DNA of 8,338 nt, taken from NCBI GenBank assembly GCA_003559395.1, contig PWLL01000064.1:1-8338 (forward strand), given 5' to 3'. This DNA comes from Candidatus Iainarchaeum sp. GTDB taxonomy: Archaea > Iainarchaeota > Iainarchaeia > Iainarchaeales > CSSED10-239. Shown here piece after piece: positions 2,253 to 7,443 of the stretch (position 1 is the stretch's first letter; each line of letters opens with the position of its first letter). The notes below the pieces were generated by a model. It made no database searches and was not told the origin of the DNA. It worked only from the letters and a program-made list of their open reading frames with translations. The position numbers and the translations under genes were made by a program.

Positions 2253-3497
2253 TTATTTAACAATTTCATTTATTTTTTTCAATAATTTTATATATGGCAC
2301 AAAATAAACAGACGTATTTTCTTTCTTTATTTCTCCTTCAAACTCTTTTGTTGCTATAAAACCAACATCTGGTTTATATTTTGTTAAAAAAGAATTAAAT
2401 GATCTTGAAAGATTTTCTTTTTTTAAAGTACTTTTTACTTCTATTGGAATTATTTTTCCAGATTTTTCAATTATAAAATCAACTTCTGCATTTGATTTTG
2501 AATTCCAATATTTTACTTCAAACTCATTATTAATAAGTTCAAGTAAGATAAAATTTTCATGTAATTGGCCTATATCTGATCTAAAACTCACATCTTCTAA
2601 AAAATTATTATTTACTTGGTTTCTAAGACCAAGATCATAAAAATAAACTTTTTTACTTTTATTTATTTCTTTTTTTTTATTTCTAAAAAAAGGTCTTATT
2701 TCTATATATATAAAGGTTTTATTTAATATATTCAAAACTCTTTTAAGTTCTTTATATCTAAAACCTGTCAAAGAAGAAAGATTTACATAGTTTATTATGT
2801 TTCCTATTTGTAAAGAAAGTGCTTTTATTAAATCATTAAACATAAAATCATCTGACAAAACAATTATATCTTTTATATCTCTTAAAGCATGTGTGTTGTA
2901 TATATTTTTTAACACTTGTTTTTTTTCTTCTTTATCTTTAGCTAATACAACTTTAGGATAGCCTCCATAAATAAGATATTCATCTAAATATTTATTTATT
3001 TTTTTTAAAATCACCTCTTTATATTTATTTTGCACATATAAATTATATAAATTTTCATCTTTATATCTTAAAAACTCACTAAAAGAAAAAGGATATAAAT
3101 TAAAAACAAATATTCTTCCTACTAAATATCTTAAACATTTGATAGCAATATCTACTGATGAAGATCCAGATACAATTATTTTTGTTTTCTTATAAGTATC
3201 AAATATGTATTTCAATTGAGGACCACATTTATTTGCATGTTGTATTTCATCTATAAATAAAATATCTGTATCTTTTACATATTTTTCAATAAAAGAATCA
3301 ACATCTGTTATAAAAAGACGTAAATCAGAAATATTATCAAAAGAAACTTCTTTTATATTTTTATTTTTAATATTAGATAAAATATGTTTAATTATGGTTG
3401 TTTTTCCAGATTGTCTAGGACCTACCACTGCAAGAATTTCTTTATTATCAATATATTTTAAAAGAATTTCTTCTAAATTTCTTCTTATATAAATCAT
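2253..3497 (-). CDS. AAA+ ATPase with C-terminal PD-(D/E)xK nuclease-like domain (COG1373-type, AAA_14 + DUF4143 architecture), 414 aa
   Basis: Walker A is VVGPRQSGKTT (res 24-34) and Walker B is ILFIDEIQ (res 79-86). The C-terminal part has the family-typical GQLHENFILLEL followed by AEVDFIIE...IPIEVKS (res 337-356), a D...ExK restriction-endonuclease-like signature. Stop is TAA. Confidence 0.85.
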   Translation of the reverse strand: MIYIRRNLEEILLKYIDNKEILAVVGPRQSGKTTIIKHILSNIKNKNIKEVSFDNISDLRLFITDVDSFIEKYVKDTDILFIDEIQHANKCGPQLKYIFDTYKKTKIIVSGSSSVDIAIKCLRYLVGRIFVFNLYPFSFSEFLRYKDENLYNLYVQNKYKEVILKKINKYLDEYLIYGGYPKVVLAKDKEEKKQVLKNIYNTHALRDIKDIIVLSDDFMFNDLIKALSLQIGNIINYVNLSSLTGFRYKELKRVLNILNKTFIYIEIRPFFRNKKKEINKSKKVYFYDLGLRNQVNNNFLEDVSFRSDIGQLHENFILLELINNEFEVKYWNSKSNAEVDFIIEKSGKIIPIEVKSTLKKENLSRSFNSFLTKYKPDVGFIATKEFEGEIKKENTSVYFVPYIKLLKKINEIVK

Positions 3498-3673: not shown

Positions 3674-4936
3674 TTAACACCAACCAATCTTTTCTGGCTT
3701 TATCAATTCTCTTAAAAGATTTGTTGCATATTGTCCTTTATCAAGCACAAAAGAAAGCTTTATTTTCTTTTTTCCTGGATTTATTTCATCGTCTGTAATC
3801 TCTTCTAGCTTAAGATCATACACTTCTGAAACAAATTTTCTATACTCTCCTTGACTAGACAAAGCTCCATAATCTTGATTTTTAAAATCTAATAAAGAGA
3901 TATCTTCTTTTTTAAGAACTTCTCTTTCTAATTGCCCTGCTAACCCTGAAGAAAACTGTGTTTCATATCCAAATAAAGGAAGATGTATCTTGTCGTTTAT
4001 TATTTTATCTCCTTCTATCTGTTTTACACCAAAGCCTTTTTCTAATCTTAGATTAACAAGCTGATTAAATAAAAAAGATTGATAGGCATGAACAAAAAGA
4101 TACTGAATGCCTTTAGGCAAACACTTTATAGCACCAAGATAATCTTCTGGCTGGTTTGCAAGATGATTTAACATCTGTTTTTCATAACCTGCTCTTGCTG
4201 GAAAATCAGAAGCGTGTTTTCTATAATCTAAATCTTTTTTAAGATCTTCTCTTGCTTTTTTTATATGTTCTTCTTCATATTCGTTTGTTTGTGTAAGATA
4301 CAAAATAATTGCTTCTTTGTATTTTCTTTGCAACAAGAGTTTACCAATTTTATGTGTTATCTCTCTAACACCACCAAATCTTTGTTCGCCGTAATAATTA
4401 ATAATTCCTTTTTCGTATATTTCTTTTACAAATTCTGAAACTATTTTGTCCAGGTAATCAAACAAAGAAATTTGTCTTACAGTTATAATAAATTTATTTT
4501 GTTTAAGATCACCAATTGTAATTTCTTTTTCTTTATAAGCTGGGTTATATATTTTTATATTTTTATAATAAAATTTAGAGATTCTTTCTTTTGGCACATC
4601 AGATATAGAAATTCTTTGACAAGTAATAGCTCTTTTGTCTTTTAATCCAGCATATCCTATTTTCTTTTTTGAAATTCTTAAAAATCTTGAAAGTTGATTA
4701 ATTGCTGCAGTTGTTGAAAGTCCTTTTTTTTCAAAATCAACATGAAGAATTTTCTTTTCTGGATTTTCTAAGAAAAATTTATCCCACTCAACATACACTC
4801 TTTTATCTGGAAGATATTTTACTTGTGTTTTATAGTCTACGCCAATTTCTTCTACAATAAAATCGTCTGCAATTTCTTTTATTCTGCCACCGATTGGTTG
4901 TGTTGTTGTTAAGTATAGATATTTCATATTTTTCAC
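3674..4936 (-). CDS. truD: tRNA pseudouridine synthase TruD/Pus7 family (tRNA Psi13 synthase type), 420 aa
   Basis: TruD hallmark blocks are present: N-terminal ADDFIVEE (E. coli PEDFVVVE); the catalytic-Asp block YAGLKDKRAITCQ (E. coli FAGQKDKHAVTEQ); NYYGEQRFG (E. coli NYFGAQRFG); SFLFNQ; and C-terminal YATNLLRELI. The track start is a GTG at 4936-4934. An in-frame ATG at 4927-4925 is an alternative start. Stop is TAA. Confidence 0.9.
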   Translation of the reverse strand: MKNMKYLYLTTTQPIGGRIKEIADDFIVEEIGVDYKTQVKYLPDKRVYVEWDKFFLENPEKKILHVDFEKKGLSTTAAINQLSRFLRISKKKIGYAGLKDKRAITCQRISISDVPKERISKFYYKNIKIYNPAYKEKEITIGDLKQNKFIITVRQISLFDYLDKIVSEFVKEIYEKGIINYYGEQRFGGVREITHKIGKLLLQRKYKEAIILYLTQTNEYEEEHIKKAREDLKKDLDYRKHASDFPARAGYEKQMLNHLANQPEDYLGAIKCLPKGIQYLFVHAYQSFLFNQLVNLRLEKGFGVKQIEGDKIINDKIHLPLFGYETQFSSGLAGQLEREVLKKEDISLLDFKNQDYGALSSQGEYRKFVSEVYDLKLEEITDDEINPGKKKIKLSFVLDKGQYATNLLRELIKPEKIGWC

Positions 4937-7443
4937 TTGTATCTTAAAAAAGCCCCGATTCCTCCAAAGGCTCTATAAAACTGCATTCCTTCTTGTGTTT
5001 CTGTTGATACAACTTCTATTTTGCTTCCAAAAGGTTTAGCAAAATCAACAATAAAGTCAATAAAGTCTGCTTCTTCTAAAAGTTCTGTTTTTTTACCACA
5101 GGTTTCACAGCTATTTTCCATTTCTTTTTCTACTTGTAAAACATTATCTTTATCTTTTACAACTTTTGGAATAATCTTATCACATGAAAAGCACTTAAAC
5201 TTTAAAACAGTCCAATCGATAGTTTCAGAAATTAAAACACTAGCAACTTTTCCAAGCTTTATAGCTTCAAGCACTTCTAAAAACCCATAGGTTGCAAGAT
5301 TATTTTTTGCAACTTCGCCAAAAAATTGATTTACTAGTTCTTTTTCTTTAACAATAGATAGGTCTTTAAGAATATCTGAGCCTTTATCTAAAATTTCTTT
5401 AATTCCTGATTCGTCTGTATATCCAACATCTACTGTGCCTAAAATTTTATCTTTTATTCTATGATCTAGACCAGAAATGTCTATAAAGTCATGTTTGGTA
5501 TGTCCTGGCCCTCCAACAATAATTCCTTTTAATTTTTCTTCACCTACAAAAGCAGCATTAACACGTTCTCCAACTCTTCTAAAAAAAGATTCTGCTGCTT
5601 TTTCTCTTAGTCTTGCAAACCTAGCTGCTGAGTTATGCACAACGAGTCCGTTTGCTAAAAAGTTTTTATTTACTACTGAGATGTCAATCATTTTTGTTTT
5701 TTTAGATGTTTTTTGTATTTCTTTTATTTGTACTGGTACGATAGGATTTTTGTATATTTCTAACAACTCAGAATATACTTTTTTATTTTTTATTTTCTTT
5801 AAGATAGATTCTTCAAACCTTTTTTTACTTATCTTACTTTTATTATTAAAATAGGCACTAACTTTAGGAAACAATTTTAGATTACAATTATTTTCTTCGA
5901 TAATCTTTCTTATATGTTTGCCTGAAAAAATCATTTGCCTATCATAATTTGTATTTGATTTATCTTTAATAAGCTTATCTAGTGTTTTGGATTTTTCAAG
6001 AGAACTGAAATTTATTTTTTCTTTAAAAATTTCTAAAGATTTTTTTTCTGAAATACTTATTATAAAGTTTGAGTTTCTACTTGTTTTATTACCGCGTTCT
6101 ATAAAAGAGCTAATTATAGAAAACCTAAGTAACAACAATTGCATTTCTTGAGCCATTTTTTTATTTTTAATAGATATGGTTATGTTTTTTCTATTTTTGT
6201 TTATGTTAGCTTTTGCATCAAAAAAACCTTTTAAAAAACTTGCAACAACATCGTTTTCTGATCTAGTGATCTTTTTAGGTATTCTTGAGTTAAAGTGTTC
6301 TTTTATTTCTATAAAATTATCTTTTATTAATCTTGTTAATGATCTACTTGTAAAATTTAGTTGATTATTTTTATTTTCTTTAAGTTTATAGTTTGAAGTA
6401 ATATTAAAATAATTATCATATTCTTTTTTATAATCTTGTAATATGTTATGTTTTTCAAAAAAGAAAATACTATCTTCTTCTATACAACCTACACCCATAA
6501 AATAACCAACAAACTTAGAAAGTTTTGAGTCTAGTATTTTTGGAAGTTTTATATCTTTTTCTTTTATCTTGTTAACATTCAACATTTGTTTTTTTGATTT
6601 AATATTAATAATCTCAGGAACAATTAAAGAATCTTTTTTTATTAAATCTTTTGCTTTTTTTTCAATAATTTTATAACCATCGTTAACAAAAAAAACATGA
6701 TCTTCACTTGCTTCAATTTCCATTCTTGGGTTTTTTGTTATTATCTTGCATGTTTTAGTTTTGTTTACTTCCCAGACTTTATTTATCTTTGAGGAATCAT
6801 TCACATATTTTTTATTAAAATATACAGAATTAACAAAGCTATTTGACTTACAATCTTCAATATCTGTGATGGTCCCATCACTTAATTGAACTAGACAATC
6901 TTTCAAACACTGTCCACCAGCCCTTGTTTTTCCAGGTACCGCTGATGTTGATCTTTTTATTATTCTATATGTTTTTCCTGTTATTAACGCAATAGTTGCT
7001 TCTCTTTTATCAACGGCAATAACACCATACACTTCATCATGCGTCATCTGTTCTTCTAAAGGAGCTGTATGAAAAGAAGAATCACACCAATAAAGTTTTG
7101 TTTTTAGTTCTTTAGGTGGTTCAATATCTAATAAAATTACATCTGTTTTAGAAGGATTTTCAGAAACATCTCCTGAAAAAAGAACAAGTCCGTTTTTAGG
7201 AAGTTTAAAATCAATTTGTCTTAGGTATGTGGTTATTCTTTTTAAGGCTGCTTGTACGTTTTTTCTTGTATGTTGGCTTTTTATGTTTGATGATTGACTA
7301 ATTTCATCAGTAAGTTGTTTAGTAACACTACTTCTATCTACGTTTGGTGGAAGATAAAGGCTTATAAGTTGTGTTCCTTCTCCTGTGTATTTTTTTATTT
7401 CTTTTATTTTCTTTTTAACTATCATTTTTTGATATTCGTCCAT
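4933..7443 (-). CDS. prf1: Peptide chain release factor aRF1 (archaeal eRF1 homologue), 836-aa precursor containing an in-frame 426-aa intein; predicted spliced product 410 aa
   Basis: Domain-N determinants are SSNIKS (NIKS at res 53-56) and YWCDSSF (YxCxxxF, res 118-124). The GGQ motif is at res 176-178. After the intein comes SAARFARLREKAAE (res 605 onward), which continues the conserved GGQSAxRFxRLR block. The C-terminal domain ends in ...GGIGAFLRYK. Stop is TGA at 4935-4933. Confidence 0.95.
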   Translation of the reverse strand: MDEYQKMIVKKKIKEIKKYTGEGTQLISLYLPPNVDRSSVTKQLTDEISQSSNIKSQHTRKNVQAALKRITTYLRQIDFKLPKNGLVLFSGDVSENPSKTDVILLDIEPPKELKTKLYWCDSSFHTAPLEEQMTHDEVYGVIAVDKREATIALITGKTYRIIKRSTSAVPGKTRAGGQCLKDCLVQLSDGTITDIEDCKSNSFVNSVYFNKKYVNDSSKINKVWEVNKTKTCKIITKNPRMEIEASEDHVFFVNDGYKIIEKKAKDLIKKDSLIVPEIINIKSKKQMLNVNKIKEKDIKLPKILDSKLSKFVGYFMGVGCIEEDSIFFFEKHNILQDYKKEYDNYFNITSNYKLKENKNNQLNFTSRSLTRLIKDNFIEIKEHFNSRIPKKITRSENDVVASFLKGFFDAKANINKNRKNITISIKNKKMAQEMQLLLLRFSIISSFIERGNKTSRNSNFIISISEKKSLEIFKEKINFSSLEKSKTLDKLIKDKSNTNYDRQMIFSGKHIRKIIEENNCNLKLFPKVSAYFNNKSKISKKRFEESILKKIKNKKVYSELLEIYKNPIVPVQIKEIQKTSKKTKMIDISVVNKNFLANGLVVHNSAARFARLREKAAESFFRRVGERVNAAFVGEEKLKGIIVGGPGHTKHDFIDISGLDHRIKDKILGTVDVGYTDESGIKEILDKGSDILKDLSIVKEKELVNQFFGEVAKNNLATYGFLEVLEAIKLGKVASVLISETIDWTVLKFKCFSCDKIIPKVVKDKDNVLQVEKEMENSCETCGKKTELLEEADFIDFIVDFAKPFGSKIEVVSTETQEGMQFYRAFGGIGAFLRYK
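5632..6909 (-). mobile_element. Intein (426 aa; Hint splicing domain plus LAGLIDADG-type homing-endonuclease domain) inserted between Q178 and S605 of aRF1
   Basis: It begins with Cys (TGT, 6909-6907; block A CLKDCLVQLSDGT). Block B is EASEDHVFFV (SxxH). The two LAGLIDADG-like motifs are KFVGYFMGVGC (within 6478-6522) and FLKGFFDAKAN (within 6202-6246), about 92 aa apart. Blocks F/G are MIDISVVNKNFLANGLVVHN, ending His-Asn (5637-5632), followed by the +1 Ser (5631-5629). Removing the insert restores RAGGQ/SAARFARLR. Confidence 0.9.

Follow-up and report, generated by a model that had tools for sequence, protein, structure and literature searches.

Positions 1 to 8,338 of contig PWLL01000064.1 from the archaeon Candidatus Iainarchaeum sp. 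(assembly GCA_003559395.1), a stretch to which we refer as a whole as the window, contain a leftwards-transcribed gene for the class-I release factor aRF1. Its 836-codon open reading frame (ORF) is interrupted directly after the GGQ motif by an in-frame insert of 426 aa (Table 1). An earlier examination of the letters alone (the sequence-only reading) had interpreted the insert, at 5632-6909, as an intein starting with Cys, ending with His-Asn and followed by Ser, with residues 1-178 and 605-836 of the ORF forming a colinear 410-aa aRF1. Retranslation reproduces this arrangement exactly, and the aRF1 assignment agrees with the translation and with the matches described below; the insert is genuine and its limits are exact.

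The aRF1 gene and its insert

The insert is flanked by ...PGKTRAGGQ on its N-terminal side and by SAARFARLREKAAE... on its C-terminal side, and conceptual excision yields a 410-aa aRF1 with NIKS at residue 53, YWCDSSF at 118 and GGQ at 176. The flanking segments (exteins) match the Pfam families eRF1_1, eRF1_2 and eRF1_3, and when joined they match the aRF1 equivalog model TIGR03676 in a single stretch with 464.2 bits (cutoff 234.7) and the pelota model with 73.9 bits, which is under its cutoff of 177.65. Alignment of the joined exteins to the aRF1 structure 4af1 (E = 1.8e-85) is gapless across GKxRxGGQSAxRFARLR, confirming the proposed insertion point between GGQ and Ser and the restoration of the consensus GGQSAxRFxRLR. 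The 836-codon ORF is unbroken although the sequence is only 26% GC, and the ratio of nonsynonymous (dN) to synonymous (dS) substitution in the exteins is 0.11-0.13. NIKS occurs again at precursor residue 280, within the insert, where it was taken as a chance match, and plus-strand ORFs at 5021..5290 and 5477..5854 are antisense within aRF1 and were treated as spurious. Domain C contains a CxxC...CxxC mini-domain (KCFSCDK...SCETCGK, within ~5050..5220 on the minus strand) that has a weak match to Zn_ribbon_6 and aligns with the corresponding segment of 4af1.

Table 1. Features of the interrupted aRF1 gene (a slash marks a splice junction)
Feature	Coordinates	Strand	Remarks
aRF1 precursor ORF	4933..7443	minus	836 aa; TGA stop at 4933..4935
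N-extein, aRF1 residues 1-178	6910..7443	minus	Domain N and start of domain M, ending GGQ (6910..6918)
N-extein motifs	NIKS 7276..7287; YWCDSSF 7072..7092	minus	Both in domain N
Intein, 426 aa, precursor residues 179-604	5632..6909	minus	Pfam PF14890 and PF14528, AF2/Foldseek, family alignment
Intein ends	Cys1 6907..6909; His-Asn 5632..5637	minus	Junctions GGQ/C...HN/S
N-terminal splicing (Hint) half	6610..6909	minus	Beta-rich in AF2 model
Block A CLKDCLVQLSDG	6874..6909	minus	
Block B S-E-D-H (S68, H71)	6697..6708	minus	
HTH-less junction, intein residues 115-116 (I-K)	6562..6567	minus	Place of HTH_3 in most family members
LAGLIDADG endonuclease domain, degenerate	6010..6534	minus	PF14528, Foldseek
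Block C KFVGYFMGVGCI	6481..6516	minus	Val140 (6490..6492) replaces catalytic Asp
Block E SFLKGFFDAKANI	6202..6240	minus	Lys233 (6211..6213) replaces Glu/Asp
C-terminal splicing half	5632..5745	minus	Block F ...KMIDISV, Asp409 at 5683..5685; block G NGLVVHN
C-extein, aRF1 residues 605-836	4933..5631	minus	+1 Ser 5629..5631, SAARFARLR, remaining domain M, domain C

The translation of the insert opens with CLKDCLVQLSDG (starting CLKDC) and closes with NGLVVHN. It matches Intein_splicing (PF14890; E = 4.6e-21, 75.7 bits, cutoff 35.8) and LAGLIDADG_3 (PF14528; E = 2.5e-13) in Pfam, and searched alone among PDB sequences it matches PI-PfuI (1dq3; phmmer 9e-9) and VMA inteins. An AlphaFold2 (AF2) model of the insert, built from an alignment of 67 sequences, has a pLDDT of 94.7 and a pTM of 0.93, and Foldseek superposes it on the TliVMA intein (7qss; E = 5e-26, TM 0.78) as well as on PI-PfuI (1dq3, E = 1e-22), PI-PkoII and PI-SceI, with the central domain matching the free-standing LAGLIDADG enzymes I-DmoI and I-Tsp061I. 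The profile searches and the predicted structure thus both agree with the proposed identity of the insert, and by all sequence and structure criteria examined it is a class-1 intein, for which splicing itself is predicted.

Residue conservation was counted in an alignment of 115 inteins of the aRF1 family, and C1, S68, H71, D409, H425, N426 and the +1 Ser are invariant in all of them. The sequence-only reading had listed intein blocks A, B, C, E, F and G; A, B, F and G are indeed intact, but C and E, while recognisable, have lost their catalytic acids, which had gone unremarked. The family motifs are GYxxGDG, with the Asp present in 111 of 115 inteins, and FDAEG, with Glu or Asp in 110 of 115, and the window copy has GYFMGVGC (D140V) and FDAKAN (E233K) at these positions. 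P0003, which is one of the two intein-bearing relatives nearest to the window copy, has the same two replacements. The two-helix LAGLIDADG pseudo-dimer fold (alpha-beta-beta-alpha-beta-beta-alpha) is recognisable by PF14528 and Foldseek, but the acidic residue that ends each LAGLIDADG helix in active endonucleases is missing; characterised enzymes of this type require the two metal-binding acids for DNA cleavage. In addition, about 85% of the family are ~500 aa long and carry an XRE-type helix-turn-helix (HTH) domain, HTH_3 (~76 residues), which separates the N-terminal splicing half from the endonuclease domain, and the window intein lacks it, with a clean 76-column alignment gap after intein residue 115. 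Because both catalytic acids and the HTH are lost, we class this copy as an immobile relic and not as an active endonuclease. As judged from the sequence, the splicing machinery looks intact, and the mobility machinery has lost both of its catalytic acids and its presumed DNA-binding module.

HTH_3 is present in P0002, P0004-P0007 and others (intein residues ~116-190 of ~500) and also in the MCM intein P0286. It occupies the position at which PI-SceI and PI-PfuI have extra DNA-binding regions, and its candidate roles are to recognise the target or to let the free intein act as a regulator. We also note that the intein starts with C-L-K-D-C (6895..6909, minus strand), of which Cys5 is common only to the nearest relatives P0002 and P0004; Cys1 and Cys5 are, speculatively, a redox-sensitive pair.

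Distribution and evolution of the GGQ-site inteins

A search with the precursor gives 213 clusters at 90% identity (E <= 1e-10), and the same insertion point is occupied in related aRF1 genes, with GGQ/C...HN/S at the equivalent position in at least 119 of 120 clusters among the matches listed. Judging from source names, the hosts are DPANN archaea (Diapherotrites/Iainarchaeota, Woesearchaeota, Nanoarchaeota and Aenigmarchaeota). An exhaustive HMMER run against 1.84 billion representatives, with only the intein as query, yields 35 matches at E <= 1e-30, nearly all of them aRF1-sized with the intein beginning near residue 180. Outside the aRF1 set the next relatives are RadA inteins, at 26-33% identity, and those of MCM and GlmS.

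Species-representative genomes were also scanned with the spliced extein, identifying 54 related loci in 54 assemblies, of which 36 lack the intein and 16 have it, the other two being unparsed by the motif scan; the distribution among related genomes is patchy. None of the 54 assemblies has two aRF1 loci in this pattern-based scan, which has limited sensitivity and covers close relatives only. Two reduced forms are present at the GGQ/S site, a 144-aa mini-intein without an endonuclease in L045 (JAGVWE010000002.1), one of the 16 occupied loci, and a 271-aa intein without the first LAGLIDADG half in P0020; as naturally occurring mini-inteins, both might be useful to protein engineers.

In the protein collection, the nearest homologue of the exteins is P0125, a 410-aa protein with 86% identity and no intein. 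On the P0125 contigs a PRTase gene is followed by aRF1 and TruD and then by a Hel308-like helicase gene on the opposite strand, and this order is repeated in the window and in the P0002 contig, where the intein retains an HTH and intact endonuclease motifs. The shared gene order therefore identifies orthologous loci in related organisms with three states of the GGQ/S site. At the empty junction of L055 the sequence reads ...GGTGGTCAA/AGTAGTGCA....

The histories of intein and host were compared by a distance-based test in which 3000 quartets were sampled from four groups set by extein similarity. All 3000 extein quartets join the window clade with the other Iainarchaeota, but 2405 of the 3000 intein quartets contradict the exteins and join the window-clade inteins with those of Woesearchaeota/Nanoarchaeota. 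This conflict between intein and host phylogeny points to horizontal spread. A second indication is provided by three Iainarchaeota loci with intact endonucleases (L040, L041 and L050), in which the endonuclease-domain dN/dS is 0.13-0.14 and the intein dS (~0.4-0.6) is lower than the extein dS (~0.83-1.0), the pattern predicted for an intein that moved later than the hosts diverged; these sequence comparisons suggest recent horizontal spread by a functional endonuclease.

The intein diverges faster overall than the exteins, with the exception of the splicing residues. In the trio that includes the window the intein dN is ~3 times that of the exteins and the endonuclease-domain dN/dS is 0.28-0.38, and the inteins are 55-58% identical at 81-86% extein identity, the lowest intein identity among 97 comparable pairs (median 74%). 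A near-identical contig in a separate data set (L058; Logan SRR490128) has the same 836-aa gene with two nucleotide differences, both nonsynonymous and both in the intein (V569L and S580F), which are too few for a population-level selection test. The combined data fit a classical homing cycle of invasion, fixation, endonuclease decay, deletion and return to an empty site.

Two further ideas were considered and set aside. The intein differs from the exteins in GC content (22.8% vs 31.6%), but GC at third codon positions (GC3) is about equal (0.169 vs 0.139), and since the gap arises from amino-acid composition it provides no evidence of recent import. Likewise, comparison of the junction codons of 39 empty and 17 occupied alleles, in which the +1 Ser is encoded by AGY in 27 of 39 and 8 of 17 respectively, reveals no clear difference that would indicate target-site immunity.

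Predicted splicing and alternative explanations

Taken together, these observations make it very probable that the window encodes an aRF1 precursor with a class-1 intein of a site-specific DPANN family, that the intein excises itself, and that it carries a dead endonuclease and is immobile. Class-1 inteins splice by an N-S acyl shift, trans-esterification, Asn cyclisation and an O-N shift. The motifs here predict an N-S acyl shift at Cys1 (Cys179), trans-esterification onto the +1 Ser (Ser605), cyclisation of intein Asn426 (Asn604), and an O-N shift that would create a Gln178-Ser peptide bond and release a 410-aa aRF1 with an intact GGQSAARFARLR loop. Most family members have an apparently functional LAGLIDADG endonuclease together with an HTH, and homing appears to be the way in which the family spreads; the window copy, without the HTH and both catalytic acids, would no longer be able to move. 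Its persistence is probably due to the host's need for continued splicing and to the fact that only a perfectly precise deletion restores the GGQ loop.

The GGQ loop must reach the peptidyl-transferase centre for peptide release, and with a 49-kDa domain hanging on this loop the precursor should therefore be unable to release peptides; N5-methylation of the Gln, if it occurs, could take place only after splicing. As domains N and C are both intact, the unspliced precursor might, speculatively, still recognise stop codons or associate with aEF1-alpha and so hinder termination, and such interference would add selection for fast splicing. Whether termination depends fully on splicing hinges on the copy number of aRF1 in the genome, of which the window contig covers 8.3 kb.

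Some of the data weigh against this interpretation. The dN/dS of the window endonuclease domain is less than 1, so the domain is not freely drifting, which may reflect a folding constraint imposed by splicing or another role. The rate estimates are rough, with dS near saturation in an AT-rich lineage, and the phylogenetic tests are distance-based. Finally, block B has Ser where Thr is usual, though this Ser is invariant family-wide.

The endonuclease-domain dN/dS below 1 is also one of the points in favour of an intein that is still mobile, either by activity despite D140V and E233K or by mobilisation in trans through a related endonuclease or ordinary recombination; the fold is moreover predicted at high confidence, and close relatives such as P0002 have alleles with intact endonucleases. 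However, both of the acids that are kept in ~96% of the family are non-acidic here and the HTH is deleted, and we regard continued mobility as very unlikely. It is scarcely plausible that the insertion is non-splicing, or that the gene is dead or repurposed and another aRF1 copy terminates translation, as the intact 836-codon ORF in 26% GC sequence, the low extein dN/dS, the integrity of all aRF1 motifs and the conservation of every splicing residue all argue against it. The locus is furthermore the syntenic orthologue of an intein-free gene, and no assembly among the 54 loci has two aRF1 matches within the limited sensitivity of that scan.

A further explanation adds a function to the intein and is compatible with the one that we prefer. 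In it, splicing is gated by a signal, for example through a redox-controlled disulfide between Cys1 and Cys5, and the intein tunes the supply of active release factor and thereby global termination. The intein has been kept with perfectly conserved splicing residues after the death of its endonuclease, the window, P0002 and P0004 have an additional Cys four positions after Cys1, and conditional splicing of archaeal inteins, RadA for example, is known from the literature. Yet Cys5 is not conserved in the family, where most members have Ala, Ser or Thr, and the fact that GGQ does not tolerate an imprecise deletion explains retention equally well; close relatives with empty alleles, moreover, show that the host does well without the intein. 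Regulation of this type is thus an unlikely addition. Engineered eRF1 GGQ mutants are dominant-negative binders of stop codons, and as an extension of such a switch the unspliced precursor could act in the same way. A switch, if present, would explain why the intein was retained after endonuclease death, and environment-sensitive splicing would control every termination event in genome-reduced DPANN archaea.

Related inteins, annotation and neighbouring genes

The closest structurally-determined relatives, TliVMA of Thermococcus litoralis (7qss), PI-PfuI (1dq3), PI-PkoII (2cw7) and PI-SceI (1vde), have the same arrangement of a Hint domain split by LAGLIDADG, and share with the window intein Cys1, the block-B His, the terminal His-Asn and a +1 nucleophile. 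They differ in their hosts (V-ATPase, RNR and DNA polymerase, as opposed to aRF1), sequence identity is only 12-18%, and in the window copy the catalytic Asp/Glu is missing from each LAGLIDADG motif and block B has Ser instead of Thr. Inteins of RadA, MCM, GlmS and aIF5B/IF-2 have the same architecture and also lie in conserved motifs of essential proteins, but their exteins and insertion sites are different; the best intein-bearing NCBIfam model for the window is that of IF-2. Database entries of the aRF1 GGQ-site family share the insertion site, have homologous exteins and contain inteins 31-60% identical to that of the window, although the majority are ~500 aa with HTH_3 and GDG/DAEG motifs, compared with 426 aa, no HTH and GVG/DAKA here.

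Inteins typically reside in catalytic motifs of essential proteins, preferring those of replication and repair, and an intein at the GGQ site is for this reason not mechanistically surprising. To our knowledge, the classical InBase host list contains no release factor. The 2016 survey by Novikova (PMC4760082) gives, in its main text, aIF2/IF-2 as the translation-related host and reports that core translation components hold few inteins. In the full-text literature searched, which includes the main text of that survey, IF-2 is the only translation factor named as a host and no termination factor is, and there is no mention of aRF1, eRF1 or another peptide chain release factor carrying an intein. 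The suspicion in the sequence-only reading that class-I release factors are missing from the classical host lists therefore agrees with the literature to this extent, but not entirely with databases, as JGI already labels some members automatically as 'peptide subunit release factor 1 (eRF1)/intein/homing endonuclease'. The GGQ/S inteins are thus apparently a new host protein and site for a well-known element, abundant in databases and partly auto-annotated, but apparently undescribed.

These inteins follow immediately upon the catalytic Gln, a universally conserved residue, in a class-I release factor and recur there across several DPANN phyla, which places translation termination among the processes that can rely on protein splicing. 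The family also offers a natural series at one site, from an active-looking endonuclease with HTH through a dead endonuclease and a partly deleted intein to a 144-aa mini-intein and an empty site, which is useful both for study of the homing cycle and for mini-intein mining. The NCBI names of P0007, P0013, P0073, P0079 and many others are only 'LAGLIDADG family homing endonuclease' or 'helix-turn-helix domain-containing protein'; under such names an essential marker gene is masked, and both the estimated completeness and the phylogenies of DPANN genomes can be distorted.

No tRNA genes or Rfam families were found in the 8.3-kb window. Between TruD and the helicase gene there is a leftwards-transcribed gene for a 414-aa AAA_14/DUF4143 ATPase (2253..3497, minus strand), which has the lowest GC content in the window (20%, GC3 0.08) and is absent from the syntenic loci, where L055 has an unrelated 205-aa gene and L057 has nothing; from this comparison it looks like a lineage-specific insertion. 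The aRF1 TGA overlaps a possible GTG start of TruD (GTGA, 4933..4936), an overlap that suggests co-transcription of the two genes. In L055 and L057, TruD starts 9 nt past the aRF1 stop, and the true start in the window may therefore be an ATG a few codons downstream.

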